DNA of 64,000 bases from a virus (IMGVR_UViG_3300028920_001457:13444-77443); one strand, 5' to 3'; shown: positions 356-29,692, counted from the stretch's first letter. Notes: generated by a model from the sequence alone, not told the origin. Numbers and translations: made by a program.

Positions 356-706
356 TCAATCATCACCCTGCATCCGGGAACGTGCCCATTTAGCACCATG
401 TCTTGCTCCATGATTATAGTTATTAAGTAATCTCATATTGATTAATTCAGCTGAACCCTTATAAGCTGTAAATTCAGAAGATTGTATTAAAGAAAATTCC
501 TTCTCTATCTCCTCATCTGTCAGTCCTGCGGGTTCTGCTGGCTTGAGAGTATATTCAATATCGGTATCATTTATTTTGTCCTCGCACCATGTGACTTCAC
601 CATGATGGTTTAAATCCTTAAAATCTTCATCTTGCAATAATTCATCCTTATCAAATCCCAAATTAAGATATATCTTCTTTGGAATATTTTTTATCTGTGC
701 TTTCAT
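356..706 (-). CDS. hypothetical phage protein
   Basis: 116 aa; C-terminal TDEEIEK...GAKWAR motif resembles ORF 1782-2093. Confidence 0.7.
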   Translation of the reverse strand: MKAQIKNIPKKIYLNLGFDKDELLQDEDFKDLNHHGEVTWCEDKINDTDIEYTLKPAEPAGLTDEEIEKEFSLIQSSEFTAYKGSAELINMRLLNNYNHGARHGAKWARSRMQGDD

Positions 707-712
707 TGTGAG

Positions 713-1054
713 TTAGATTTTATATTTAGTTTTCAATAATTTAAGTATATCATCAAATTGCTTCTGTACCCATTTTTCAACTTGGTATTTAACTTCGGTT
801 TCGGTTTCAGCCTCAAAATCCTTACTTACTATTTCAACAAAATCACCTTTGGTATGAAGCAAAATATTACTTGTGGCACTTGGTTTAATATCATTATTGG
901 AATTTGTTTCAATAGATACTTTTCCGCTTTCGTTATGAGTTATTATTCCCATGCCACCTCCACGTGGCCAATACCGAGTACTAATAGTCAATATTTCACC
1001 ATCATAATCCTTTTTGCCCTGACAATCATCTGTCCATTCTGCTGTTGGTTCCAT
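713..1054 (-). CDS. hypothetical phage protein
   Basis: 113 aa ORF, co-directional packing. Confidence 0.7.
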   Translation of the reverse strand: MEPTAEWTDDCQGKKDYDGEILTISTRYWPRGGGMGIITHNESGKVSIETNSNNDIKPSATSNILLHTKGDFVEIVSKDFEAETETEVKYQVEKWVQKQFDDILKLLKTKYKI

Positions 1055-1064
1055 AATACACCTC

Positions 1065-1313
1065 CTATTTATTAGTTTCTTTTTCAGGATATTTTTTCAT
1101 ACCACCATACCACATTCTTTTGCAATTAGAGCAGCCTTCGTTAAGCATATTATCCAGCTCATCAAAAGACATCTCATAACCGCAATAAGGACAGGTACGG
1201 TTAAATACAAATGTTTCGGCATCGTCTTTATAAAGAAATGATGCCATCAGTTTGCCTTCATATCTCACAAACCAGTAATCGTTTGTTCCCTGTGTTATAG
1301 TATATTTTTTCAT
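1065..1313 (-). CDS. small zinc-ribbon protein
   Basis: CPYC...CSNC motif. Confidence 0.6.
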   Translation of the reverse strand: MKKYTITQGTNDYWFVRYEGKLMASFLYKDDAETFVFNRTCPYCGYEMSFDELDNMLNEGCSNCKRMWYGGMKKYPEKETNK

Positions 1314-1585
1314 TTCCCTTTGATTTCAGTTAGCCAGTAGTTGAATATGTCGCTAAATGTCACTTGATTTCCGTCCATATCAAAATATTCATTATCACCA
1401 TATATGTCTGTTCCTGCCTCAAAGTATTCAGAAAAGTCCATTACACACCATTCAGCAAACTCCATATACAGTTCATGGATTTCTTTGGCAAGAGAATTAA
1501 ATTGAGCCTCATGTATTACTATTCCAAACCCAAAGATATTTGATGCATCCGCATATCTGTTTAATATTTCAAGTATCTTTTCCAT
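1310..1585 (-). CDS. hypothetical phage protein
   Basis: stop overlaps the start of the next gene. Confidence 0.65.
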   Translation of the reverse strand: MEKILEILNRYADASNIFGFGIVIHEAQFNSLAKEIHELYMEFAEWCVMDFSEYFEAGTDIYGDNEYFDMDGNQVTFSDIFNYWLTEIKGK

Positions 1586-1587
1586 TG

Positions 1588-1770
1588 TTATTCGGGGTTA
1601 GTGATATTCATACATTGTTTTAATTGATGATATATTGCAAATTGCATTTCATATAATCTTAACGAATGCCATTTGTGGTTTTCATCTAAGCCAGATTCTT
1701 TTAGTATTCTTTTTGCATTTTTTAATGCTATTTCTCTTGCTTTTTGCATTTTTCCATAATCGCTATTCAT
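1588..1770 (-). CDS. hypothetical phage protein
   Basis: 60 aa ORF, packed. Confidence 0.55.
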   Translation of the reverse strand: MNSDYGKMQKAREIALKNAKRILKESGLDENHKWHSLRLYEMQFAIYHQLKQCMNITNPE

Positions 1771-1781
1771 ATCATTATATT

Positions 1782-2093
1782 TTAGTTAGTCTTTATCTTT
1801 CCGTCTCGCATGGCTTTAGGTATCTTATTATCTCTTATGGCAATAGCTCCATGTTTCCAGCCCAGCCAATAGCCCCTTTCAAAATCATTGGCATTATCAG
1901 GTAATATATTATCATTCGCTATTGTTGCCCATTTCTCAATATCTTCATCACTCACTTCATCCTTGTTTTGTGAGGCAAATTCAAGCATGGCTTCAATAAC
2001 TTCATCTCTGTAATAAAATTCACCTTGTTGTATTGGTTCTTTTATGTCGAGATTATCTAATACCTCTTCTGCTCTCTGTCTGTCTGTTTTCAT
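1782..2093 (-). CDS. hypothetical phage protein
   Basis: 103 aa; SDEDIEK...HGAIAIRD motif resembles ORF 356-706. Confidence 0.7.
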   Translation of the reverse strand: MKTDRQRAEEVLDNLDIKEPIQQGEFYYRDEVIEAMLEFASQNKDEVSDEDIEKWATIANDNILPDNANDFERGYWLGWKHGAIAIRDNKIPKAMRDGKIKTN

Positions 2094-2173
2094 ATCTGTA
2101 AGTTTAATTTAATATCCGGTAATATGTGGTAATAATATTTTCACTAATTCCTCTGTCTATAAGGCTATTATCA

Positions 2174-2443
2174 TTAATGTTCGGTAATATCCGGTAAATC
2201 TAAAAGCATCTTTATTTCTAATGGACAATATGGTAACCTTTCCCCCCTTGATATACTGGCAGTATCAAAATCTAAACCAGCATAAGTACACCACTTTCCT
2301 TCCACACCCACATATTTATATTTACAAGAATGACAGTCATGTGGCAAAGGTGATATATCACAACTCGCAATCTTTTTGAATATTTCATCACGCTGTTTCT
2401 TATTATAGCAATGTTCTTTTAATGCTTCTATATATTTCTCCAT
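2174..2443 (-). CDS. hypothetical Cys-rich protein
   Basis: CHSC, WC and YCPL motifs. Confidence 0.6.
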   Translation of the reverse strand: MEKYIEALKEHCYNKKQRDEIFKKIASCDISPLPHDCHSCKYKYVGVEGKWCTYAGLDFDTASISRGERLPYCPLEIKMLLDLPDITEH

Positions 2444-2523
2444 ATCTGTAGGCTTAATTTATTTGTTGTATCTCGCCAATATGGCGAGTATTTGGCGACT
2501 TATAATATTTCCTCATAATAACC

Positions 2524-2883
2524 TTATTGATTAAATAAAACAAACACAGTCAATAGGGCTAACAAAGCAATAATAAAGAATGCTCTGAAGATAAGTTCAG
2601 TAAGTGGTATTCTTTTTCTCTTATCTTTCAATATCCATGGATTTAGCCCCATACCACGCCTTGCAGTTTCATCGCTGACATATTCATTAATAAAATCCAT
2701 GACACGACCAAACCTGAACATAACAGCGAGTATATATATAACGGCAAACACTATCCCCGCAAGAGCATACATATTGTCAGCCCACCAATGATTAACAAAA
2801 CCCTTTATAAGCACTGCAACAAAAAACAGCCATAGGGTTAAATCAACAAAGTCTCTTCTTAAGTAATTAAATAGTTTTTTCAT
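2524..2883 (-). CDS. membrane protein, about 3 TM helices
   Basis: three hydrophobic segments. Confidence 0.7.
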   Translation of the reverse strand: MKKLFNYLRRDFVDLTLWLFFVAVLIKGFVNHWWADNMYALAGIVFAVIYILAVMFRFGRVMDFINEYVSDETARRGMGLNPWILKDKRKRIPLTELIFRAFFIIALLALLTVFVLFNQ

Positions 2884-3089
2884 GTCTCTTGGTCTTTAGC
2901 GGGCTCATGCGTTGTCTTAACAAGCATATAACCCATATTATCTAATTCTTTAGCTATATCAGTTAGTTTTTGATATAGTGTTAAGCGTTCATCGAAGACA
3001 ATTAATCCTCTTTGTAAATTAACACCACGCACCATCCTTAATGCGCATTTGTCCGCAGAATCAAATAATACATCTTTAGTCGTTTCCAT
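2880..3089 (-). CDS. hypothetical phage protein
   Basis: overlaps both neighbouring genes. Confidence 0.6.
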   Translation of the reverse strand: METTKDVLFDSADKCALRMVRGVNLQRGLIVFDERLTLYQKLTDIAKELDNMGYMLVKTTHEPAKDQET

Positions 3090-3828
3090 AAGTTAATTTA
3101 TTAATTTCTTTTTCCAAATATAAAATAGCTCTTTTAAATATGGTAGTATTTTCGCATGAAGCACCTAAAAGTCTATTACAATTATGGCACAAAACACCCC
3201 TGATAACCCCATTGCTATGGTCGTGGTCAATACATGCCCTTTTCTTACCATTCTTAACGGTTATGGGGTTATTGCAAATCAAACATTTATTATTTTGAAT
3301 TTTTAACAACATCTCAAGGTCGTCTTTACTAAGACCATATTGTAGGAGATAGCGAAATTCATCGTTATTTCTTTTCCTTAAACATTTCTTGCACCCACCC
3401 CTATATCCACATTTAGTGTTCTTACATTTATAAAATTCAGAAAGAGGTTTTATTTCGCCACAAATATTACACAGTTTTTTCCCGTCCTTTATCTTAGAGG
3501 ACGCCTCTCTCCTTAGAATAAACTCAGAAAAAGACGAATGTCTCCCACAGTCTCCACAAAAATAATACTGATAATTTCGTTTATAATTACGCTTCCTTAT
3601 ATTAAGACTTCCACAATGTCTGCACTCCAGCCGGTCGGGATTATTCCATCTCTCTTTACTCCTATCAACAGAGCAAAAAAAACGACCACAGCTACGACAT
3701 AAATAACGGCGATCTTCCCCCTGGGGGAGTCCCTTCAAATATGCATTCCTATTCCACCTCCCCTTAGATGTAATATTATTTCCCCCACAATAGGGGCAAG
3801 TTGTTCCTTTTATTATCACTCTCCGCAT
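3076..3828 (-). CDS. endonuclease VII-type HNH nuclease with N-terminal zinc ribbons
   Basis: C-terminal CLIC...IDHDH...RGVLCHNCNRLLG and repeated CxxC ribbons; start moved to ATG 3828 because a promoter and structured leader lie at 3829-3958. Confidence 0.8.
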   Translation of the reverse strand: MRRVIIKGTTCPYCGGNNITSKGRWNRNAYLKGLPQGEDRRYLCRSCGRFFCSVDRSKERWNNPDRLECRHCGSLNIRKRNYKRNYQYYFCGDCGRHSSFSEFILRREASSKIKDGKKLCNICGEIKPLSEFYKCKNTKCGYRGGCKKCLRKRNNDEFRYLLQYGLSKDDLEMLLKIQNNKCLICNNPITVKNGKKRACIDHDHSNGVIRGVLCHNCNRLLGASCENTTIFKRAILYLEKEINKLTYGND

Positions 3829-4206
3829 TGCGATTAATATAAAAGCCCCTCCAACAGACGGCCTATAACTCACATCGCAAGGATAGAATTCACCTATTTT
3901 CGGGGCAATGTTATTTTTAATTGTAAACACGATGTATGTTATAAGCGATACAAAGATAGTCATTTGTTTTGAGTTCGCTTTTTCCATAATGCTTTTTAAT
4001 CTTAATTTCTTGTCAAATGTAAAATGCTTTTTTGACATTTCCAAATATTTTAGCGATTATTTTTACTTTTGGCGGGATTTTTCTACCACCAGTAAACATT
4101 ATACCTTGTATTTTTTAATTTAAGCGTGTTTTTAGCGTGTTTAAGACATTTTCTTGCAAAAGTGGGTGTGTACCCCCACCAAAAGAACAAAGTCCTTTAA
4201 ATCGCT

Positions 4207-4494
4207 TTATTTTGCCTGTTCCTCGATTGTTTTGTCAATATTATCAACCAATGCTTGACAAAACCCCATTATAAACGGATCATTTGTTTGTCTTGATGGG
4301 GAATTTAAAACCACGGTCTTAATGCGCTGCCTAACGCGGTCTAATTCCCTTGCCAATAATAATTCTCGTTGTGTGTGAATTTGGGTTGCATAATCGTCCA
4401 TTATTTTGTGTAATAACGGATCATTTGTTCCACGTATAAAAGCCTTTGCTTTCGATGGATAGTCCTCACAAAACTCTCTTGAATTTTTCATCAT
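4207..4494 (-). CDS. hypothetical phage protein
   Basis: 95 aa ORF. Confidence 0.6.
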   Translation of the reverse strand: MMKNSREFCEDYPSKAKAFIRGTNDPLLHKIMDDYATQIHTQRELLLARELDRVRQRIKTVVLNSPSRQTNDPFIMGFCQALVDNIDKTIEEQAK

Positions 4495-4509
4495 TATAAA
4501 TTTTTATGG

Positions 4510-5004
4510 TTAAACAATACTTTTTAATTTACTTATATATCTTTTGTCGGTTGCATAGGGCAAGTCCTTAAGAAAAGTGTAATAATCCCTTAAATCATGC
4601 CCCTTTTTTATGTAGAAGTCCTGCCATAGCTTATAATCAATTACGCTATTTAGCCAATGGTCATATTTAGCATGGTGTTTATATATTCCCGTTGCTTTTG
4701 TCGGGCGTACCCTCGCATAGCGCATACCAAAACAATTAAACCCCTGTTTGAAAATATCACTACGGAAGTTACCCGTTTCGTGGACTGCTTGGCGAAACGC
4801 TATTTCGGGTGATCTTATTTCCAGGTAATAAATAGCCTCTTTCAAAAGTTCGGGTGAAAATGGTTTGGTGTAAATCTCTTCAAAAAATAAATGCTTTTTA
4901 AGGTTAAATACTCTTTTTTGATTTTCTTGTGTGGATGTCAGCGGGGGGCAACCCGCAAGTAGGGGAAGCCCCGCAAAAGCTATTAATAACAATAGTTTTT
5001 TCAT
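4510..5004 (-). CDS. glucosaminidase-family (GH73/FlgJ-like) peptidoglycan hydrolase with lipoprotein signal
   Basis: QAVHETG, NCFGM and YATD..YISKL motifs; N-terminal MKK-hydrophobic-LAGC lipobox. Confidence 0.8.
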   Translation of the reverse strand: MKKLLLLIAFAGLPLLAGCPPLTSTQENQKRVFNLKKHLFFEEIYTKPFSPELLKEAIYYLEIRSPEIAFRQAVHETGNFRSDIFKQGFNCFGMRYARVRPTKATGIYKHHAKYDHWLNSVIDYKLWQDFYIKKGHDLRDYYTFLKDLPYATDKRYISKLKSIV

Positions 5005-5038
5005 ATTATCCTAATTTTTAATGATTTGCAAAGATAGA

Positions 5039-5224
5039 CTATTCCCACAATAGTTCTTTTAGCTTAAGGATTGTAAGTTTTATTATCTCTTTTGCCGGAT
5101 CATCACAATCTGTTCTTATGTGTGGTATCATTTTTTCAACTTCTCTTTGCACAAGTCCTGTAATTATTTCTGATGCCAGGTTAAGAACGGAATGTTCATC
5201 TGTTTTTAGTTCTGTCTTATTCAT
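5039..5224 (-). CDS. hypothetical phage protein
   Basis: 61 aa ORF. Confidence 0.55.
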   Translation of the reverse strand: MNKTELKTDEHSVLNLASEIITGLVQREVEKMIPHIRTDCDDPAKEIIKLTILKLKELLWE

Positions 5225-5227
5225 GGT

Positions 5228-5422
5228 TTAATCTTTTAGCGGTGAATATTCCTTATATCCATTTGCGATTAATTCATTAATAAAGCCGTTCAGTTTATTT
5301 TTGTTTTTGAACGGTGCAATATCATAAAAATCGCTTCCGTCTTTGTGTTTTTTTATTCCGTTATGATAGCAAACCAGGTATTTTACCTTGCCAACATTGA
5401 ACATTAATCTATATGTTTTCAT
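5228..5422 (-). CDS. hypothetical phage protein
   Basis: 64 aa ORF with A-rich translation initiation region. Confidence 0.65.
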   Translation of the reverse strand: MKTYRLMFNVGKVKYLVCYHNGIKKHKDGSDFYDIAPFKNKNKLNGFINELIANGYKEYSPLKD

Positions 5423-5440
5423 TTTATTAAGTTTTAAAGA

Positions 5441-5752
5441 TTAATAACTATTTACATTTCTTAATTCATTGAGTTCTTTTAAATACCTGTCATAATTTCG
5501 TCTTTTGACTACTTTAAGATTATAGCCTAAAGATTCCAATTCGCTTTTTAAGTCAGCATATTCATTTTCTTTAGCCGGTTTTGCGTTTTTCATACAAGCC
5601 GAATATTCAGCCCCGCCATGTTGACCAATGTGCATATAACTACTGATCCCGCCCGTATAGTCCCATATATCATAAGGGAATAGGGCTATTATTTCGTTGT
5701 CTTCAGGAAATCGCCTAAAGATCACTTCTGTAATAAATTCATCTTTTTTCAT
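5441..5752 (-). CDS. hypothetical phage protein
   Basis: 103 aa; IIALFP...SYMHIGQHG segment. Confidence 0.7.
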   Translation of the reverse strand: MKKDEFITEVIFRRFPEDNEIIALFPYDIWDYTGGISSYMHIGQHGGAEYSACMKNAKPAKENEYADLKSELESLGYNLKVVKRRNYDRYLKELNELRNVNSY

Positions 5753-5770
5753 AATTTCTAATTTTAATAG

Positions 5771-5947
5771 TTAGTCATTTTCTCTTAACCATGCCTGAAA
5801 ATCACCAGGCATAGGATATGTTTTACTTATGACGCCCTCAATTTCAAGAACGAGTTTTCCTTTTTGTTCATATATAGAAAAGTCGGCGCCTAGAGGCTTA
5901 CTGAATTCCAAATAGAATTCCTGTATTAAGTCATTTGTTTTTGTCAT
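5771..5947 (-). CDS. hypothetical phage protein (58 aa, below ORF-track cutoff)
   Basis: MTKTNDLIQEFYLEFSKPLGADF... fills the gap between neighbours. Confidence 0.5.
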   Translation of the reverse strand: MTKTNDLIQEFYLEFSKPLGADFSIYEQKGKLVLEIEGVISKTYPMPGDFQAWLREND

Positions 5948-5958
5948 AAAAATAGTTT

Positions 5959-6150
5959 TTATTCAATAAATTCAATACCTGAATGAGTAAATTCAATACC
6001 TGAATGAGTTTGGCAATCCAAACACCAAGTATCTTCGTCTTCAATTTCCTCTAAATAATCAAGGGAATTTTCATCGGTAAGTAAGTTGTGCCAAATTTTG
6101 GCCTCAACATTTTCACTACCACATTTTTTGCATACAATTTTTGTCTTCAT
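5959..6150 (-). CDS. small zinc-ribbon protein
   Basis: CKKCGS...WCLDC; probable start MKTKIV at 6150; C-terminal THSGIEF is duplicated. Confidence 0.6.
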   Translation of the reverse strand: MKTKIVCKKCGSENVEAKIWHNLLTDENSLDYLEEIEDEDTWCLDCQTHSGIEFTHSGIEFIE

Positions 6151-15834: not shown

Positions 15835-15913
15835 AGCGGTGGAGTGAAACGGATAAATAAATCATTCGAGTCTCATAATCTCGAGATAGTGGGTTCAACT
15901 CCCACGACCGCAA
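15835..15913 (+). tRNA. tRNA-Met(CAT), possibly initiator-type
   Basis: anticodon loop CTCATAA, T-arm GTGGG-TTCAACT-CCCAC, 1:72 A:A mismatch. Confidence 0.75.
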
Positions 15914-22957: not shown

Positions 22958-24712
22958 ATGAATACTTTAAGGTTATTCAATGCGGTAATCGCAAAAGAAT
23001 CTACAGAAAAACCCTTCGTTTCAGAAGAGGGATTTATCATTGAATCAAATGCTCTTTGGGCAAAAAATAGGATATTGGAATTCTATCTCAAGGAAAAGTT
23101 AAGTGGTAACGATCTTAACAAAACATTTCACAAATCATGGGCTAAAATTAAAAACAGCTCTCGGTTTGAATTGTTTGTTGAGCAGATATTTCATTATATT
23201 TCTACATACGGAAGTGATTTTCAGGACGAAATATATATTCCCGATGAAGTATTAAATGTACCTGACGTAAAGTTGTCATACAAGGTTGTCCGTGCATATT
23301 CCAAGGAGGAAATGACGGATAAGTGTTTATCACTATTAAAATCAGGTATAGCATTAAAGGAGGAAACAATTAATGAGGTGTTATCGGTGCTTGTTGAAGA
23401 ACTGGATTATTCCTTTACGGGAAATGAGAAAATCAGAAACAAAGAGGCTGTTATAAAAATAGCAGATATTTATGGCGTTCTGCCCAATGACACCATGGAG
23501 TTTTTCAGATATATTATATATCGGGCTACGGGGCAGTCTCTTCTTATTAAGAGCAATGATTTGATAATGAAAATTAAAGAAGGGAATTATAATCCGTCGG
23601 TTCAGTTTAATAAATTCGGATTAGAAAAATTGGCAACGATATTTAATCGTTTTAAGCCATTATTCTTGGCATTTAAACCCAAGTGCGGAAAAACGATCAA
23701 TAAAATTGCGAAGTTGTCTAAAAAGTTTCATAAACCTCTCGTTGTCAACCCCCTTAATACCGCAACAAGTGAGCTGATGGGGGATGATGATAGACATTGG
23801 TTGGATAATGCTACGCCGTACGCTTTATTTAAAGTATTATCGGCATGTTATACGAGAGCGAGCGGCCAAGAGTCTTTCGTTTATCGGATTAGAAACGGGA
23901 AATCCTGGGTCAAGGAAAAGGAAACTATTTTGAGGGTGAACAAGTTAAATTTTGATTTCATTATAAAGTATCTGAAAGAAAGATATGATTTATCAGAAAA
24001 GAAATTCTTTTTGCCTGCTGATATAAAATATGCCCTTCCTACATCAGAAAAAATGTTTGTTGGCAATATTCCCACAGGAACGAGATTTTATGGCAGGAAG
24101 TTGGCGGTTGGGATATATTGGGAGGACGCATGGGGGGCAAGAGACCTCGATCTTTCGGGGTTGACGCTTTCAGGGCATAAGGTTGGTTGGAATGCAGAAT
24201 ATGATTATGGCGAAGGACAATTAATGTATTCTGGCGATATTACATCCGCCCCCAATGGTGCGGTAGAGTACCTGTATGCCAACAAAGGGCTTCGGGAATC
24301 GGTTTTAATAAAAAACAATGTTTATTCGGGAAGTAATGAATGTGATTATAAAATCGTTATTGGGTTGGGGGATAAGATTTCTGTGGATTATATGATGAAC
24401 CCAAATAATCTTTTTATAGAAGTCAAATGTAAGTCCGTACAAAAACAGACCATATTGGGGATTCTTACTCCAAAGAAAATGGGGCAGTGCTTTGTATTGC
24501 TTAATTTTGGGGCGGGACATGTAAGGGTGTCGGGCAACAGTAAGATATCTAATATCGCCCTTAAGTCACTATATGAACAATGGAACAAACCGTTTTCATT
24601 TAATAAATTGATTAAATTATTGGGGGCGCAGATTGTTGAAAACAAAGAGGATGCAGATTATGATTTCTCGTCTGATAATTTAGAAAAAGATTCTTTTATT
24701 AAGATATTTTAA
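22958..24712 (+). CDS. large hypothetical protein with C-terminal TerD-like domain
   Basis: GIYW...RDLDLS...YSGDITSAPNGAVEY motif; helical N-terminal half. Confidence 0.7.
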   Translation: MNTLRLFNAVIAKESTEKPFVSEEGFIIESNALWAKNRILEFYLKEKLSGNDLNKTFHKSWAKIKNSSRFELFVEQIFHYISTYGSDFQDEIYIPDEVLNVPDVKLSYKVVRAYSKEEMTDKCLSLLKSGIALKEETINEVLSVLVEELDYSFTGNEKIRNKEAVIKIADIYGVLPNDTMEFFRYIIYRATGQSLLIKSNDLIMKIKEGNYNPSVQFNKFGLEKLATIFNRFKPLFLAFKPKCGKTINKIAKLSKKFHKPLVVNPLNTATSELMGDDDRHWLDNATPYALFKVLSACYTRASGQESFVYRIRNGKSWVKEKETILRVNKLNFDFIIKYLKERYDLSEKKFFLPADIKYALPTSEKMFVGNIPTGTRFYGRKLAVGIYWEDAWGARDLDLSGLTLSGHKVGWNAEYDYGEGQLMYSGDITSAPNGAVEYLYANKGLRESVLIKNNVYSGSNECDYKIVIGLGDKISVDYMMNPNNLFIEVKCKSVQKQTILGILTPKKMGQCFVLLNFGAGHVRVSGNSKISNIALKSLYEQWNKPFSFNKLIKLLGAQIVENKEDADYDFSSDNLEKDSFIKIF

Positions 24713-24713
24713 T

Positions 24714-24721
24714 TATCTTTG
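24714..24721 (+). promoter_or_regulatory. -7 promoter box for tRNA operon 1
   Basis: TATCTTTG, 4 nt before the leader ATG; no clear -33 box. Confidence 0.7.
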
Positions 24722-24725
24722 CACC

Positions 24726-24788
24726 ATGATTAGAATACAGCATATAGAGCAACCGCAACAGCCAAGAGCCGATATTGGGTCTGGATAG
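24726..24788 (+). CDS. attenuator leader peptide 1, MIRIQHIEQPQQPRADIGSG
   Basis: codons 4-13 are only Ile(ATA), Gln, His, Glu and Pro, the tRNAs of operon 1. Confidence 0.85.
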   Translation: MIRIQHIEQPQQPRADIGSG

Positions 24789-24811
24789 GTGTTCTATGTG
24801 TTTATAATACA

Positions 24812-24844
24812 GAGCCTTCTGGACTATTTCAGAGGGCTTTTTTT
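24812..24844 (+). terminator. attenuator terminator 1
   Basis: GAGCCTTCTGGA-CTAT-TTCAGAGGGCTT plus T run, ending 4 nt before tRNA-Pro. Confidence 0.85.
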
Positions 24845-24848
24845 ATTT

Positions 24849-24921
24849 CGGAAGTATGGTGTAATCAGGTAGCATACGTGCCTTGGGCGCACGGGGAGTA
24901 GTTCGAATCTAATATTTCCGA
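24849..24921 (+). tRNA. tRNA-Pro(TGG)
   Basis: CGTGC-CTTGGGC-GCACG anticodon arm; acceptor CGGAAGT/ATTTCCG. Confidence 0.9.
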
Positions 24922-24927
24922 CAATAT

Positions 24928-24999
24928 TGGCACATAGGTTAATGGTAAGACCTCTCGGCTTATACCCCAGCAGTCCAAGTTCGATTCTTGGTGTGCCAA
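24928..24999 (+). tRNA. tRNA-Ile(TAT)
   Basis: loop CTTATAC; acceptor TGGCACA/TGTGCCA resembles tRNA-Ile(GAT). Confidence 0.85.
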
Positions 25000-25000
25000 C

Positions 25001-25075
25001 GGTGGTTATGGTGTAATGGCAACATAACTGTTTGTGGAGCAGTGGTTATCAGTTCGAGCCTGATTAATCACCCCA
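25001..25075 (+). tRNA. tRNA-His(GTG)
   Basis: loop TTGTGGA, G-1:C73 pair, encoded CCA. Confidence 0.92.
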
Positions 25076-25076
25076 T

Positions 25077-25147
25077 GCTCGGTTCTTCTAACGGCAGGAA
25101 ATCGGGTTTTCACCCCGGCAATAGCGGTTCAATTCCGCTACCGAGTA
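25077..25147 (+). tRNA. tRNA-Glu(TTC)
   Basis: TCGGG-TTTTCAC-CCCGG. Confidence 0.9.
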
Positions 25148-25153
25148 CGATAA

Positions 25154-25224
25154 TGCCTTGTGGTGTAATAGTAACACATAACACTTTGGATGTTATGTTT
25201 TCGGTGCGAATCCGAACAAGGCAT
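25154..25224 (+). tRNA. tRNA-Gln(TTG)
   Basis: TAACA-CTTTGGA-TGTTA; U1:A72. Confidence 0.9.
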
Positions 25225-25233
25225 CAAAATAAA

Positions 25234-25264
25234 TTTGGAAATTTAAAAATATGTATTATCTTTG
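25234..25264 (+). promoter_or_regulatory. promoter for tRNA operon 2
   Basis: TTTG, 19 nt spacer, TATCTTTG. Confidence 0.8.
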
Positions 25265-25283
25265 TACCAATAAAAAACAAAAA

Positions 25284-25358
25284 ATGCAGTTAGTCAGAAA
25301 GAATATGGTGAATATTGACCGCACAGGCGCAACCTTGCGAGGGGGTATTCCTATATGA
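25284..25358 (+). CDS. attenuator leader peptide 2, MQLVRKNMVNIDRTGATLRGGIPI
   Basis: codons 4-17 cover all 11 tRNAs of operon 2 and nothing else. Confidence 0.88.
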   Translation: MQLVRKNMVNIDRTGATLRGGIPI

Positions 25359-25379
25359 TTTCTGTAAGAAACAACAGGG

Positions 25380-25408
25380 ATGCCCTCAAGAGATTGGGGG
25401 CATTTTTT
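25380..25408 (+). terminator. attenuator terminator 2
   Basis: ATGCCCTCAA-GAGA-TTGGGGGCAT plus T run, ending 2 nt before tRNA-Ile. Confidence 0.88.
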
Positions 25409-25410
25409 AT

Positions 25411-25481
25411 TGGCTCATAGTTTAATAGTAGAACGCATCTCTGATACGGATGTAGCCTAAGTGCGATTCTTAGTGAGCCAA
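25411..25481 (+). tRNA. tRNA-Ile(GAT)
   Basis: CATCT-CTGATAC-GGATG. Confidence 0.88.
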
Positions 25482-25485
25482 CAAT

Positions 25486-25558
25486 AGCGGGTTGTGTAGA
25501 AATAGTATCTCGTCAGTCTCATAAGCTGAAGTTATGGGTGCAATCCCCATACCCGCTA
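25486..25558 (+). tRNA. tRNA-Met(CAT), elongator-type
   Basis: TCAGT-CTCATAA-GCTGA; paired 1:72; Ile2 identity not excluded. Confidence 0.8.
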
Positions 25559-25562
25559 CAAT

Positions 25563-25634
25563 GGGAATATGGTGAAATGGGTATCACGATGGACTGTTAA
25601 TCCTTCGTTATAGGTTCAAGTCCTATTGTTCCCG
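25563..25634 (+). tRNA. tRNA-Asn(GTT)
   Basis: loop CTGTTAA, G73. Confidence 0.9.
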
Positions 25635-25638
25635 CAAA

Positions 25639-25710
25639 GTCCTTGTGGTGTAATGGAGAGCACAAGTGTCTTCTAAGCATTTAGTCAGGGTTCGACTCCT
25701 TGCGGGGACA
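25639..25710 (+). tRNA. tRNA-Arg(TCT)
   Basis: AGTGT-CTTCTAA-GCATT. Confidence 0.9.
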
Positions 25711-25716
25711 CTAAAT

Positions 25717-25791
25717 ACCCTTGTAGGCTCCTTGGTGGAGAACCAGATTGTCACTCTGGTAAAACAGACGGATCGTAACCGTTCAGGGGTG
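25717..25791 (+). tRNA. tRNA-Asp(GTC)
   Basis: CCAGA-TTGTCAC-TCTGG, G73. Confidence 0.85.
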
Positions 25792-25796
25792 CAAGC

Positions 25797-25869
25797 GGGT
25801 TGCAATGTACCAAGGCTGGCGAGAGACCCTTGCAAGGTTTTTGGCTCGGTTCGATTCCGAGGCGATCCA
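25797..25869 (+). tRNA. tRNA-Ala(TGC)
   Basis: loop CTTGCAA; G3:U70 identity pair. Confidence 0.88.
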
Positions 25870-25872
25870 CAA

Positions 25873-25944
25873 GCAGGATAGGTGTTGATGGTTGCATAAG
25901 AGCCTTCCAAGCTCAAGGAGTGAATTCGAATTTCACATCCTGCT
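25873..25944 (+). tRNA. tRNA-Gly(TCC)
   Basis: loop CTTCCAA, U73. Confidence 0.88.
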
Positions 25945-25948
25945 CAAT

Positions 25949-26023
25949 GGGCGATTAGTTTAATGGACAGAATATATCGCTACGGACGATATGGTGAGGA
26001 TTCGATTTCTTCATCGCCCACCA
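25949..26023 (+). tRNA. tRNA-Arg(ACG)
   Basis: TATCG-CTACGGA-CGATA, encoded CCA. Confidence 0.9.
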
Positions 26024-26025
26024 AT

Positions 26026-26097
26026 GACCCTATAATTTCAACAGTAGAATCCCATCCTTTTAAGATGGTTGTCTTGGGGCGGAACCAAGTGGGGTCA
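26026..26097 (+). tRNA. tRNA-Lys(TTT), atypical T-loop
   Basis: CCATC-CTTTTAA-GATGG; T-loop GGCGGAA. Confidence 0.8.
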
Positions 26098-26101
26098 CAA
26101 A

Positions 26102-26173
26102 GGCAGGTTAGTTTAAGCGGCAAAACACGTGATTTGTAACCATGAGATACGGCTTCGATCGCTGTACTTGCCT
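26102..26173 (+). tRNA. tRNA-Thr(TGT)
   Basis: loop TTTGTAA; acceptor GGCAGGT/ACTTGCC. Confidence 0.82.
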
Positions 26174-26178
26174 CAAAT

Positions 26179-26251
26179 AGCCCGATAGTGTAGCGGTTAA
26201 GCACGGCACCCTTACAAGATGTCAGCCACAGTTCGAGTCTGTGTTGGGCTA
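26179..26251 (+). tRNA. tRNA-Val(TAC)
   Basis: loop CTTACAA; canonical D and T arms. Confidence 0.88.
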
Positions 26252-26269
26252 CAAAAAAACATAAATATA

Positions 26270-26300
26270 TTTGTTTATTTAAAAATTATTATTAATTTTG
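26270..26300 (+). promoter_or_regulatory. promoter for tRNA operon 3
   Basis: TTTG, 19 nt spacer, TAATTTTG. Confidence 0.8.
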
Positions 26301-26306
26301 CAGATT

Positions 26307-26369
26307 ATGAAAAATCTATGGTGTTCATATAGTTTATTTTCACTCTTGCTCTTGAGGCGAGGCGGATAA
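26307..26369 (+). CDS. attenuator leader peptide 3, MKNLWCSYSLFSLLLLRRGG
   Basis: codons 4-16 cover all 9 tRNAs of operon 3 and use only those amino acids. Confidence 0.9.
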   Translation: MKNLWCSYSLFSLLLLRRGG

Positions 26370-26393
26370 ACTATATCTACCAAAGATATATTG

Positions 26394-26421
26394 AAGCCTC
26401 GCTTATAAAGCGGGGTTTTTT
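26394..26421 (+). terminator. attenuator terminator 3
   Basis: AAGCCTCGCTT-ATA-AAGCGGGGTTT plus T run, ending 5 nt before tRNA-Leu. Confidence 0.88.
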
Positions 26422-26426
26422 GTTAT

Positions 26427-26499
26427 GGGGAATTGACGTAAATGGCAACCGTATTGGGTTTAAGCCCCAAGTTTGAGAGTTCGAATCTCTTGTTCCCCA
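26427..26499 (+). tRNA. tRNA-Leu(TAA), short variable loop
   Basis: TTGGG-TTTAAGC-CCCAA, A73. Confidence 0.85.
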
Positions 26500-26502
26500 C
26501 AT

Positions 26503-26575
26503 GGTCGAGTGACGTAACAGGCAACCGTATCCGTCTCAAAAGCGGAGTTTATGGGTTCGAATCCCATCTTGACCA
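26503..26575 (+). tRNA. tRNA-Leu(CAA), short variable loop
   Basis: TCCGT-CTCAAAA-GCGGA, A73. Confidence 0.85.
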
Positions 26576-26579
26576 CAAA

Positions 26580-26652
26580 GCTCAGGTAGTAAATTGGCAA
26601 AGCAACTTGACTTAGGATCAAGGATTTGTGAGTTCGAGTCTCACCCTGAGTA
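26580..26652 (+). tRNA. tRNA-Leu(TAG), short variable loop
   Basis: CTTGA-CTTAGGA-TCAAG, A73. Confidence 0.85.
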
Positions 26653-26656
26653 CTAT

Positions 26657-26748
26657 GGATGGCTAAACCACAGTAGGTCTAAGTGGGACGGTCTTGAAAA
26701 CCGTAGGTCGCTCAACACGGCGTGTAAGTTCGAGTCTTACGCCATCCG
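26657..26748 (+). tRNA. tRNA-Ser(TGA)
   Basis: ACGGT-CTTGAAA-ACCGT, long variable arm, G73. Confidence 0.9.
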
Positions 26749-26752
26749 CGAA

Positions 26753-26835
26753 GGGACGGCTTGGCATTAGTGAGCCTAAGAGTCTGTAAAACTCCCGCTT
26801 CGGCTGTGGTGGTGCAAATCCATCTCGTCCCACCA
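26753..26835 (+). tRNA. tRNA-Tyr(GTA)
   Basis: loop CTGTAAA, variable arm, encoded CCA. Confidence 0.88.
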
Positions 26836-26836
26836 A

Positions 26837-26919
26837 GGAGAGTAAATCATCAAGGCGATGACTACGCCCGCTAAGCGATAGGTTCTGAAAGGAATGGGAC
26901 TCGGGTTCTCTGCTCTCCG
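26837..26919 (+). tRNA. tRNA-Ser(GCT), divergent
   Basis: acceptor GGAGAGT/GCTCTCC, G73, loop CCGCTAA, variable arm; irregular T arm. Confidence 0.7.
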
Positions 26920-26924
26920 CAAAC

Positions 26925-26994
26925 AGGGATACCCATTGGAGTGGTAAGCGGTCTCCAAAACCGTGATTTGAATGTTCGACCCGTTCTATCCCTG
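26925..26994 (+). tRNA. tRNA-Trp(CCA), reduced D arm
   Basis: GCGGT-CTCCAAA-ACCGT, G73. Confidence 0.82.
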
Positions 26995-26998
26995 CTAT

Positions 26999-27075
26999 GG
27001 AGAAGTAGCTGAGTCGGTTCAAGCGTCGGACTGAAAATCCGAAGTAGATGAGTTCAATTCTCATATTCTCCACCA
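26999..27075 (+). tRNA. tRNA-Phe(GAA)
   Basis: TCGGA-CTGAAAA-TCCGA, encoded CCA. Confidence 0.92.
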
Positions 27076-27076
27076 A

Positions 27077-27143
27077 GACCCAATAAAAGCACAAAACGTG
27101 GTTTGCAAAACCATGGGGGACGGTGCGATTCCGTCTTGGGTCT
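27077..27143 (+). tRNA. tRNA-Cys(GCA), apparently lacking a D arm
   Basis: GTGGT-TTGCAAA-ACCAT, perfect acceptor and T stems, U73. Confidence 0.78.
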
Positions 27144-27181
27144 CTAATATATTTCTTACCTTTGCATAAAACAAGAATAGT

Positions 27182-29692
27182 ATGGGCAAGAAACAACCGC
27201 CAAAGGCAGAAAAGAAACTTTCCTTTGAAACAGACTTTGAGTTACAGGAAGAAACCCGCCTAAAGCTACGTCCCGAAGATATAGTAAAGATAAAAGAGGA
27301 AGCAGGCAAACTACCCGATGACTTTAATCCTTATGGGAACTATATGCCCGAAAAACTCAGATTTCTGGGCGACGAACCACCCCCAAACACCAAAAGATTT
27401 GTTGGAATAAATGTGGATGATGATGATCTGACACCGATTTATGTAAGCACACCCGCCCCCCCGCCGAAAGAATTAATAGATTATCACGACCTACCACCCA
27501 CAGAACAATATTGGCGGCGTATGGAAGTACCCAAACGACTGCATAAATTAGAAGAGAGAGCCTTCCTTGCGCTATTTGAGGTAGAAAGAAGAAACAGGCA
27601 GGAAACAGTACAGGGCTATAGGATTTATCAGAAATATTGGGAAATATTAGAAGCAGAACAGGATAAATATGCGGAAGAGATAGCATGGATAAAAAAGATG
27701 TGGTGGTACAGGACTAACGGCTATTGGTTCTATAATGATGGCGAACCCGCCTATTGTACTGGTGAATATTTTGATTATCTTAACTTTTGGTATATAAAGG
27801 ATGGTGAGACACATGTGGAATTCAGGGAAGAGGATCGGGTTATTTCTATTTTTTCACATTATCTAAGAACAACAACCGAGTCTTTCGCCAACATAAACCC
27901 CACCACGGGTAGGGCAATGAAAAATAAAGATGGCAAGTATGATATGGTGGATGTCGGTGCAAGAGTATTTTTCGGTGACATGAAACCGAAATTCAGGAGG
28001 TGTGGGGAAACGCAATGGGCGTGTCACGGGATATGGCTTGGTGCGAGTACGACACCCGCCGCTTATGGTACTATCATATCCATGGATGGTGAAAACGCAC
28101 AAAAGCACTATTACAAAAAGCTAATACCCGCATGGAATAAATATCCTATGTTTCTCAAGCCAATATGGATGGGTACGAAACGTCCCACAAATATTAAGTT
28201 GATAGAACCACCCAATGTATTTAATCCCAATATGGAGGGATTGGGTTCTAATATTGATTATACAGAAAGCTCCGGGGTGTCGAAGAATGATGGTGATACA
28301 TTACATTTTTGTCTCTCAGACGAGGAGGGAAAAAGTAAGTCACCTATAGCCGAAAGGTGGAGTGTAAATAAGATAGCTATGTCAACGGGTGGTGGGTCTA
28401 ACATCCTTAATAACGCTTATGCGTGGCATCCGAGTACCGTTGAGGATATTGGTGACGGTGCGCCAGAGTATTTTAAAATGTGGCAACTATCTAATTTTTA
28501 TGAAAGGATACCCATACTTGGGCAGACACACTCGGGGTTGGCAAGGATTTTCATTCCCGCATATAAGAAACTCGAGGGTTTTATTGACAGGTGGGGTAAG
28601 TCGGTATCGGATACACCAACGAAACGACAGATAAAATACAGTCCACGAGCCAAATTTGCACTCACGGGCAAGGGTGCAAGGGAAACACTACAGGCAGTTC
28701 TTGATTCCTTGTTAGCCAAGGGGACACCCGAGGCACTTGAGGCATACAGGTCAAGGCGCAGAAAGTTCCCGATGAAGTCGGCAGATGCATGGTTGGGGAG
28801 TTCGGGTAATGTGGGTTTCAACCTTGAGATAATAGACAAGCGTATAGAGGAACTCAATAGGATAAAGTCTTTTGGCAAGATGAATTATAAAACCGGGTAT
28901 TTTTACAGGGAAAACAATCATCCACAGGGCGATGTGTTGTGGCGTACAGACCTCGACAACCCCAAGTTTATCATGTCCAAGGACTTACCACAGGAATTAA
29001 CCAACAGAAGGAGTGTGGTCGACTTTTACGATGGTCTCAGGCAACAGTGGAAGAAATCATGGACACCAGTAGACGGATATAAATTCACCCTTGGGGTGGA
29101 TATGTTCAGAAATCTATCGCCCGTAGAGGCAAAACAGGCATCTAAATTTGGGGGATTTACCAATAACTCCCGCCAGAGTAATGGTGGTATAGCTATTCTA
29201 TGGGAATATGATTCAGAATATCCCGATAGTGGCAGGTGTGTATTGTCGTATAATTATCGTCCATCGACACAAAAAGAGTTTATGGATGATGTTCTTATGG
29301 CGGCACAGTATTTCGGGGCAATGATATATCCCGAACAAAACGTAGAGCGGTTTATTGAGTATATGTTTGATGAGGGCTATGGCGGGTATGGGCTTTATGA
29401 TATTGATTTGGTAACTGGTAATATAAAGAAACTACCAGGGCGATATACTACAAAAGAAAGCCTGCAAGAGATGTTCAGGGAATATAAGGACTATATAGAA
29501 CGTAAGGGTGCGGAAGAAGAACACGATGATTTGCTAATGCAGATGAAAAACATACGTGGGGTAGAAGATGCTACACGTAATGACCTTTTCGTTGCTTTCG
29601 GTATGTGTCTTCTTGGAAGTAAGTCCCGTGTCAGGGAAATTATAAAGCGTGAAGACTTTGGTGAGGCAATAGCAATAGACGATATTTTTTAA
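27182..29692 (+). CDS. terL: terminase large subunit (crAss-like type)
   Basis: KFRRCGET Walker-A variant, LSDEEGK Walker B, LGVD nuclease motif, RND near the C-terminus; directly upstream of portal. Confidence 0.88.
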   Translation: MGKKQPPKAEKKLSFETDFELQEETRLKLRPEDIVKIKEEAGKLPDDFNPYGNYMPEKLRFLGDEPPPNTKRFVGINVDDDDLTPIYVSTPAPPPKELIDYHDLPPTEQYWRRMEVPKRLHKLEERAFLALFEVERRNRQETVQGYRIYQKYWEILEAEQDKYAEEIAWIKKMWWYRTNGYWFYNDGEPAYCTGEYFDYLNFWYIKDGETHVEFREEDRVISIFSHYLRTTTESFANINPTTGRAMKNKDGKYDMVDVGARVFFGDMKPKFRRCGETQWACHGIWLGASTTPAAYGTIISMDGENAQKHYYKKLIPAWNKYPMFLKPIWMGTKRPTNIKLIEPPNVFNPNMEGLGSNIDYTESSGVSKNDGDTLHFCLSDEEGKSKSPIAERWSVNKIAMSTGGGSNILNNAYAWHPSTVEDIGDGAPEYFKMWQLSNFYERIPILGQTHSGLARIFIPAYKKLEGFIDRWGKSVSDTPTKRQIKYSPRAKFALTGKGARETLQAVLDSLLAKGTPEALEAYRSRRRKFPMKSADAWLGSSGNVGFNLEIIDKRIEELNRIKSFGKMNYKTGYFYRENNHPQGDVLWRTDLDNPKFIMSKDLPQELTNRRSVVDFYDGLRQQWKKSWTPVDGYKFTLGVDMFRNLSPVEAKQASKFGGFTNNSRQSNGGIAILWEYDSEYPDSGRCVLSYNYRPSTQKEFMDDVLMAAQYFGAMIYPEQNVERFIEYMFDEGYGGYGLYDIDLVTGNIKKLPGRYTTKESLQEMFREYKDYIERKGAEEEHDDLLMQMKNIRGVEDATRNDLFVAFGMCLLGSKSRVREIIKREDFGEAIAIDDIF

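Follow-up and report, generated by a model that had tools for sequence, protein, structure and literature searches.

We examined a 64,000-nucleotide window that forms part of the IMG/VR record IMGVR_UViG_3300028920_001457, a 77 kb virus, and focused on the tRNA genes encoded between positions 24714 and 27143 (all coordinates count from the first nucleotide of the window). This region comprises three units, each running from a promoter through a short upstream open reading frame (uORF) of 20-24 codons and an intrinsic terminator to a group of tRNA genes (5, 11 and 9, respectively). The 25 tRNA genes form three tight clusters, flanked by a gene for a 584-amino-acid protein of unknown family (22958-24712) and by the gene for the large terminase (TerL; 27182-29692, phrog_6681). 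This layout had been proposed from the sequence alone (hereafter, the sequence-only reading). The sequence, the tRNA calls and the RNA folds bear it out, and the coordinates and codon counts that had been given for the uORFs are correct. The features of the three units are as follows.

24714-24721, plus strand: -7 box TATCTTTG of promoter 1, read from the sequence; transcription start predicted at the A of the ATG at 24726, giving a leaderless mRNA.
24726-24788, plus strand: uORF1, 20 codons, MIRIQHIEQPQQPRADIGSG and a stop; control block at codons 4-13 (24735-24764), holding only Ile (ATA), Gln, His, Glu and Pro.
24780-24790, plus strand: region 2 of unit 1 (uORF tail and stop), from constraint folds; predicted to pair with the control block (no ribosome) or with the 5' arm of the terminator (9-11 bp).
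24811-24847, plus strand: intrinsic terminator 1, a 13-bp stem (24811-24840) and T7.
24849-25225, plus strand: tRNA cluster 1 with Pro-TGG, Ile-TAT, His-GTG, Glu-TTC and Gln-TTG.
25234-25264, plus strand: promoter 2, with -33 TTTG and -7 box TATCTTTG (25257-25264); start predicted at about 25269-25270, giving a 14-nt A-rich leader.
25284-25358, plus strand: uORF2, 24 codons, MQLVRKNMVNIDRTGATLRGGIPI and a stop; control block at codons 4-17 (25293-25334), covering Val, Arg (AGA, CGC), Lys, Asn, Met, Ile (ATT), Asp, Thr, Gly and Ala.
25341-25352, plus strand: region 2 of unit 2 (codons 20-23), predicted to form a 12-bp antiterminator with 25376-25389.
25376-25408, plus strand: intrinsic terminator 2, core stem of 25380-25389 with 25394-25403, then T6.
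25411-26252, plus strand: tRNA cluster 2 with Ile-GAT, Met-CAT, Asn, Arg-TCT, Asp, Ala, Gly-TCC, Arg-ACG, Lys-TTT, Thr and Val.
26270-26300, plus strand: promoter 3, with -33 TTTG and -7 box TAATTTTG (26293-26300); start predicted 1-2 nt upstream of the ATG.
26307-26369, plus strand: uORF3, 20 codons, MKNLWCSYSLFSLLLLRRGG and a stop; control block at codons 4-16 (26316-26354), covering Leu (CTA, TTA, TTG, CTC), Trp, Cys, Ser (TCA, AGT), Tyr and Phe.
26355-26363, plus strand: region 2 of unit 3 (codons 17-19), predicted to form a 9-bp antiterminator with 26393-26404.
26393-26425, plus strand: intrinsic terminator 3, a 12-bp stem and T6.
26427-27143, plus strand: tRNA cluster 3 with Leu-TAA, Leu-CAA, Leu-TAG, Ser-TGA, Tyr, Ser-GCT (non-canonical), Trp, Phe and Cys-GCA (reduced D arm).

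We compared the codons of each uORF with the tRNAs encoded behind it. From codon 4 onwards, each uORF holds an unbroken run (10, 14 and 13 codons) that is limited to the amino acids of its own cluster and includes all of them. Monte Carlo P values for these runs, based on random peptides drawn at the phage amino-acid frequencies, are 2.5e-6, 2.6e-3 and 5e-7. When the 25 tRNAs were reshuffled into groups of 5, 11 and 9, the run sum peaked at 34 in 1,000,000 arrangements and so never reached the observed 37. Mononucleotide shuffles of the leaders reached the observed run in 0, 72 and 0 cases per 100,000, and dinucleotide-preserving shuffles in 0, 11 and 0 cases per 20,000. The other two reading frames of the leaders contain runs of at most 4 codons. 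By shuffles, reshuffles and Monte Carlo sampling alike, the codon match lies far beyond chance.

The sequence-only reading had further claimed that each block covers every tRNA of its cluster, down to the isoacceptor. Coverage is complete at the amino-acid level, but at the anticodon level it reaches 24 out of 25 by strict wobble. The exception is Gly-TCC: the block holds only GGC, and GGG sits in the tail. Under the same strict-wobble rules, the blocks are read by their own cluster to 100%, 79% and 85% and by the other clusters to 0-7%. Synonymous redraws, given the peptides, reach the 24/25 coverage in 592 of 20,000 cases (3%). The match to isoacceptors is real, but its statistical support is modest (P about 0.03), and isoacceptor tuning is to that extent modestly supported.

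The cluster sizes of 5, 11 and 9 stand, but two of the 25 tRNAs are non-canonical. ARAGORN called 18 tRNAs with default and 23 with relaxed settings, and Rfam supports those for Met, Gly, Ser-TGA and Trp. No program called the other two in the window: Ser-GCT, at about 26838-26920, has a bulge in its anticodon stem and C33, and Cys-GCA, at about 27077-27143, has a reduced D arm. Both were read by eye or position; relatives carry standard Ser-GCT and Cys genes in the matching slots. Jointly, the clusters span all 20 amino acids, and only Ile is split between clusters (TAT in cluster 1, GAT in cluster 2). In the long ORFs of the phage, ATA accounts for 57% of the Ile codons and AGA plus AGG for 61% of the Arg codons.

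Promoters were assigned by the sigma-ABfr pattern, in which a -33 TTTG is spaced about 17-21 nt from a -7 box TAnnTTTG and the start site follows 4-5 nt after that box. Promoters 2 and 3 match the full pattern and promoter 1 consists of the -7 box alone. Full Bacteroidota sites (TAnnTTTG plus -33 TTTG) occur 17 times in the window, against 2.9 expected. The -7 box of Flavobacterium johnsoniae spans T-12 to G-5, with the start site 4-5 nt beyond it (PMC6847099). The three uORFs begin 4-19 nt past their -7 boxes, and the ATG follows the box after 4-7 nt in all unit 1 and unit 3 leaders, those of the relatives described below included. Because this spacing equals the published start-site distance, it fits leaderless translation of units 1 and 3.

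The terminator stems span 24811-24840, 25376-25407 and 26393-26419, and their T-runs end 2-8 nt short of the first tRNA. A promoter would not fit into this gap, and transcription of the tRNAs therefore requires read-through. A simple terminator scan flagged units 1 and 3 only; the terminator of unit 2 was recognized in the folds, and its pairing is complete (100%) in four relatives. We folded each leader with its 5' part masked to 13 nt past the A-site codon, and again with 11-nt and 15-nt masks. With no ribosome, the 1:2 helix (control block with region 2) and the terminator form in all three units (-43.0, -46.2 and -40.6 kcal/mol). For an A site within the block, the folds pair region 2 with the terminator's 5' arm, by 9-11 bp in unit 1, 12 bp in unit 2 and 9 bp in unit 3; for one in the tail or at the stop, the terminator alone forms in all three. 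With the full leader, the antiterminator is the minimum free energy (MFE) structure over most A-site positions between about codons 5 and 15 in unit 2 and at about codons 5-12 in unit 3. The three alternative helices that had been drawn for each leader by inspection (control codons with the stop region, antiterminator and terminator) thus reappear in the ribosome-masked folds. The leaders share the position of the ORF, the regulatory codons, the mutually exclusive helices with a 3:4 terminator, and the stop codon masking region 2 that characterize the attenuator class. The Arg/Gly-rich codons that follow the block lie outside the amino-acid set of the cluster because they encode region 2.

TerL homologues with 70-78% identity are common in metagenomes (Logan and ENA assemblies), and many close TerL relatives have no tRNAs at all. 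Metagenome and pattern scans retrieved six further arrays (L018, L020, L029, L032, L033 and the identical pair L034/L035) with 11 more leaders. The ORF is kept in all 11, and its composition fits the cluster behind it in 9; the other two are the identical L034/L035 leaders, which precede a collapsed array. The terminator is kept in all 10 folded leaders of relatives and the full switch pattern in 7 of them. An eighth, L020 unit 2, has the switch pattern except that the antiterminator is the MFE structure without a ribosome. The sequence-only reading had proposed to look for units of uORF and terminator in related arrays; they are kept in relatives, apart from the composition of L020 leader 2 and the array mismatch in L034/L035.

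Helices were aligned over 4-6 related sequences. In unit 3, 95.5% of the cells of the terminator and the 1:2 helix are paired, compared with ≤55% in slid controls, and 96.1% of those of the antiterminator, compared with ≤54%. The helices of unit 2 are 92.5% and 88.5% paired in relatives. Each type of helix (1:2, terminator and antiterminator) contains both-sided (compensatory) changes. Because the samples are small and related, this pairing conservation supports the model and falls short of proof.

The uORFs vary among relatives in a way that keeps their composition. Variable sites at codon positions 1/2/3 number 5/5/10 and 6/7/13. Residue order shifts within the blocks (WC to CW, LFS to FS or SF) while set membership holds, and hardly any of codons 3-6 of unit 2 is retained, yet from codon 4 onwards the replacements are still in the set. 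Despite synonymous changes, every leader still samples the two isoacceptor classes of Arg and of Ser as well as those of Leu. The argument from replacement is weakened for unit 3, where almost every T-first codon belongs to the cluster and a codon changed at position 2 or 3 therefore remains a member. An apparent tracking of Leu-CAA by the TTG count (two TTG with this tRNA, at four loci; one without it, at two loci) was not counted as covariation because only two lineages are involved.

A structural interpretation of the locus is supported by the mutually exclusive helices and their register with the ORF, by helix conservation that includes some compensatory changes, by the excess of third-position changes and by the ATG at the predicted start. 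We consider it likely, on the strength of sequence and folding models, that the region encodes three serial ribosome-mediated leader-peptide transcription attenuators, one per tRNA operon. By the same reasoning, this uncultured Bacteroidota phage probably makes a tRNA block only when ribosomes read that block's codons slowly. Every computation that we ran agrees with the structural part of the sequence-only reading; its functional part, according to which a block would be transcribed only if a matching host tRNA is cleaved, uncharged or hypomodified, as an on-demand answer to anticodon nucleases, stands outside this support. Translation of the ORFs, its coupling to transcription and the physiological signal are what we infer from the model.

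In this model, RNA polymerase would start at a Bacteroidota sigma-ABfr promoter and a ribosome would load on the short ORF. If the block is read fast, the ribosome would reach the G-rich tail and stop and cover region 2; the terminator would then form and transcription would stop before the first tRNA. A ribosome slowed at any control codon, where functional aminoacyl-tRNA is scarce, would leave region 2 free to pair with the 5' arm of the terminator, and the tRNAs would be transcribed. If no ribosome loads, the helix of control block and region 2 would let the terminator form. Because each block samples the codons of the tRNAs behind it, the arrangement would act as a demand-driven negative feedback, in which synthesis of a block's phage tRNAs would end once these tRNAs, or the host pool, decode its leader at sufficient speed. 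The signal could be a mismatch in codon usage (such as ATA), loss of host tRNAs or attack by a nuclease.

Several observations weigh against this interpretation. Very short or absent mRNA leaders are a minority in Bacteroidota: 5' untranslated regions below 10 nt make up 3.7% in Bacteroides thetaiotaomicron, and leaders of ≤10 nt occur in about 13% of F. johnsoniae transcripts. The antiterminator of unit 1 is weaker than the terminator in the window (-11 vs -17.5 kcal/mol) and is marginal in L020 and L032, and the antiterminator is the MFE structure without a ribosome in L032 unit 1 and L020 unit 2. The effective window predicted with the +13 nt mask ends before the last 2-4 codons of the block in units 2 and 3. 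Most amino acids are represented by one codon per block, from which a weaker sensor is expected than from the codon runs of hisL and pheL. The relatives that bear leaders have nearly the same cluster contents. In L020, the cluster behind leader 2 includes tRNAs for Val and Gly, but the block of that leader contains codons for neither and one for Ser. Leader and content can also separate, as seen in L034/L035 (reverse strand, about 330-800 of the reversed loci). These two identical contigs from different samples keep leader 1 and its terminator, and a deletion of about 2 kb fuses the T-loop of tRNA-Pro to the D-arm of tRNA-Trp, leaving only Phe and Cys besides this chimera before the terminase gene.

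We weighed other explanations of the locus. That the codon match is a chance or compositional artefact, or that the small ORFs encode functional peptides, we regard as very improbable. The T-first codons of cluster 3 lend the artefact some room, as changes at positions 2 and 3 stay in the set, but the composition-preserving shuffles and the short runs in the other frames argue against it, and a functional peptide is difficult to reconcile with a residue order that is not kept among relatives. The promoters and terminators could also be real without the uORFs acting as a sensor. Read-through would then be leaky and constitutive, or set by a protein or RNA factor, and the terminators would damp or insulate. 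The weak antiterminator of unit 1 and the relatives that fold into the antiterminator without a ribosome agree with this view; it leaves unexplained the match of codons to clusters, the retention of ORF and composition despite the changed residue order, and the placement of the ATG at the start site and of the stop codon inside region 2, and we consider it quite unlikely. It is also unlikely, in our estimation, that the leaders report amino-acid starvation or general translation status and not tRNA supply, for example by tying output to charging or by shutting off on collapse. A ribosome cannot distinguish an absent from an uncharged tRNA, and all three leaders of the window terminate without a ribosome, as such a role would have it. 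However, extra tRNA does not relieve amino-acid starvation, and the match of each leader to its own cluster would have no obvious use.

The attenuators might, on the other hand, serve specifically in counter-defence: the loss of a decoder to anticodon nucleases or other tRNA-targeting systems would switch a block on, and the phage-encoded tRNA would take the decoder's place. Phage tRNAs rescue infection from tRNA-cleaving defences (PMC11555353, PMC10264068, PMC12409363), and by analogy with this published work such a role is plausible. An RtcB tRNA ligase gene lies inside the L018 array, and single codons per amino acid suit a near-total loss of tRNA better than mild starvation. We nevertheless consider it less likely than not that counter-defence is the specific purpose. 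We found no link between this phage and any nuclease, RtcB was not found in the window's genome or in two relatives, and many close TerL relatives, as noted above, do without any tRNAs. The abundance of ATA among the Ile codons, in a phage that carries Ile-TAT, makes plain codon supply a sufficient reason for feedback control, and codon-supply feedback explains the design equally well.

The leaders of the 86-kb relative L032 are 83-89% identical to those of the window, while its TerL is only 52% identical. Its large terminase gene (672-3200) lies upstream of the array (3363-6000), and that of the window lies downstream. Similar leaders next to a diverged and differently placed TerL suggest that the cassette is exchangeable between diverged phages. 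The RtcB gene of L018, a relative with 78% TerL identity, encodes a tRNA-splicing/repair ligase (519-1688; PF01139, 385 bits) and is inserted between cluster 1 and leader 2 with its own promoter. Further insertions are an HNH endonuclease gene within cluster 2 of L029 (571-1023) and a PD-(D/E)XK endonuclease gene (PF11645) within cluster 3 of L032 (5315-5710). Both of these array endonucleases are of the homing type. Tentatively, the array may be seen as a self-contained, possibly mobile "tRNA on demand" cassette, in which three sensors would probe 20 amino acids and about 25 decoders, re-supply the block that failed and then be shut off by feedback.

Searches further afield defined where such leaders were seen. 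Among L015-L017, distant relatives found via the 584-amino-acid protein, there are few tRNAs or an array without leader ORFs (L017). GenBank phages include no relative by DNA comparison and none by tblastn of leader 2, and a scan of genome contigs with the unit 3 pattern gave no match. In public sequencing runs, one marine-sediment run contains 99% of the words sampled from 24600-27250 of the window and is probably where this DNA came from, and about 20 salt-marsh runs contain 18-35% of them. Contigs from four of the salt-marsh runs yielded only short pieces of related strains (99% to <90% identity), including a variant tail of unit 1, and no set of leaders fit for comparison. No RNA run holding the sequence of 24600-27250 was found among the public runs.

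Some of the tRNA genes have further unusual features. The tRNA Lys-TTT (26025-26099) has an odd T-loop and was missed by Rfam and by ARAGORN with default settings. The three Leu tRNAs (TAA, CAA and TAG; 26427-26653) are just 74 nt long, without the long variable arm of class II, and retain A73. Long arms are present in Tyr (88 nt) and Ser-TGA (about 91 nt), and the Leu tRNAs of L017 measure 82-85 nt. The clusters are also sorted by codon: cluster 3 has all T-first sense boxes (Phe, Leu-TTR, Ser-TCN, Tyr, Cys and Trp) plus Leu-CTN and Ser-AGY, cluster 1 has C-first Pro, His and Gln plus Glu and Ile-ATA, and cluster 2 has the remainder. Elsewhere in the window, an isolated weak match to the tRNA model at 15835-15913 (29.4 bits, just above threshold) overlaps the start of an ORF and was not called by ARAGORN. 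On the terminase side, positions 27150-27181 contain no terminator 3' of the last tRNA, so read-through of the array may enter the packaging and structural genes. The same interval has a further -7-type box, TACCTTTG, directly upstream of the terminase gene.

We compared the leaders to known regulatory systems. Like the enterobacterial amino-acid attenuators (thrL, ilvL/ivbL, trpL, hisL, pheL and leuL), they have a short ORF near the promoter with regulatory codons in region 1. As in the thrL and ilvL type, helices 1:2, 2:3 and 3:4 alternate, 3:4 is the terminator, and the stop is placed such that a finishing ribosome masks region 2. Sensing of more than one amino acid is likewise known from multivalent thrL (Thr, Ile) and ilvL/ivbL (Ile, Leu, Val). 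The phage leaders differ in that they would regulate tRNAs and not biosynthetic enzymes, and in that they sample 5 to 10 amino acids, mostly with one codon each, and jointly all 20. They also differ in being phage-borne, with a Bacteroidota promoter and, in two of the three leaders, predicted leaderless starts. A parallel in target is the pheM leader of pheST, where attenuation acts on a gene of the translation apparatus and a shortage of charged tRNA raises decoding capacity. However, pheM senses one amino acid and controls a synthetase, whereas the product of the phage units is tRNA, which would feed back directly on the sensor. T-box riboswitches also read tRNA status through a choice between terminator and antiterminator, with isoacceptor specificity possible, but they bind uncharged tRNA via a specifier codon and the T-box motif without a ribosome, whereas here the ribosome would be the reader. 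No T-box match (RF00230) was found at E ≤ 1 in 24300-27600.

The leaders belong to no Rfam leader family. Unit 3 scores below the gathering thresholds of Trp_leader (RF00513, 30.0 vs 41 bits) and Phe_leader (RF01859, 25.2 vs 55), which we count as weak support for attenuation, and units 1 and 2 have no match among the Rfam leader families. The arrays themselves resemble those of T4, T5, mycobacteriophages and phAPEC8-like phages, where tight tRNA clusters serve translation or the evasion of defences (PMC10264068, PMC11555353); no leader ORF or attenuator before such arrays is described in the literature that we searched. The sequence-only reading knew of no leader-peptide attenuation of tRNA genes, and our search of full texts, with most subscription journals outside it, likewise turned up no description in phages or cells. 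The proposed mechanism is classic attenuation; what is new is the tRNA target and the multiplexed design.

The reasons for which phages carry tRNAs have been debated for fifty years, and the regulation of phage tRNAs is hardly known. If our interpretation is correct, classic attenuation would extend to tRNA genes, and compact multi-codon sensors of this kind could report tRNA availability in Bacteroidota. The signal that opens each attenuator can be measured, which would offer a handle to weigh codon supply against counter-defence. Should the cassette reading hold, the phage would detect which host decoding class has failed, for instance under attack by an anticodon nuclease or after tRNA loss induced by the phage itself. 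A virus with such leaders would gauge decoding capacity for every amino acid in real time.

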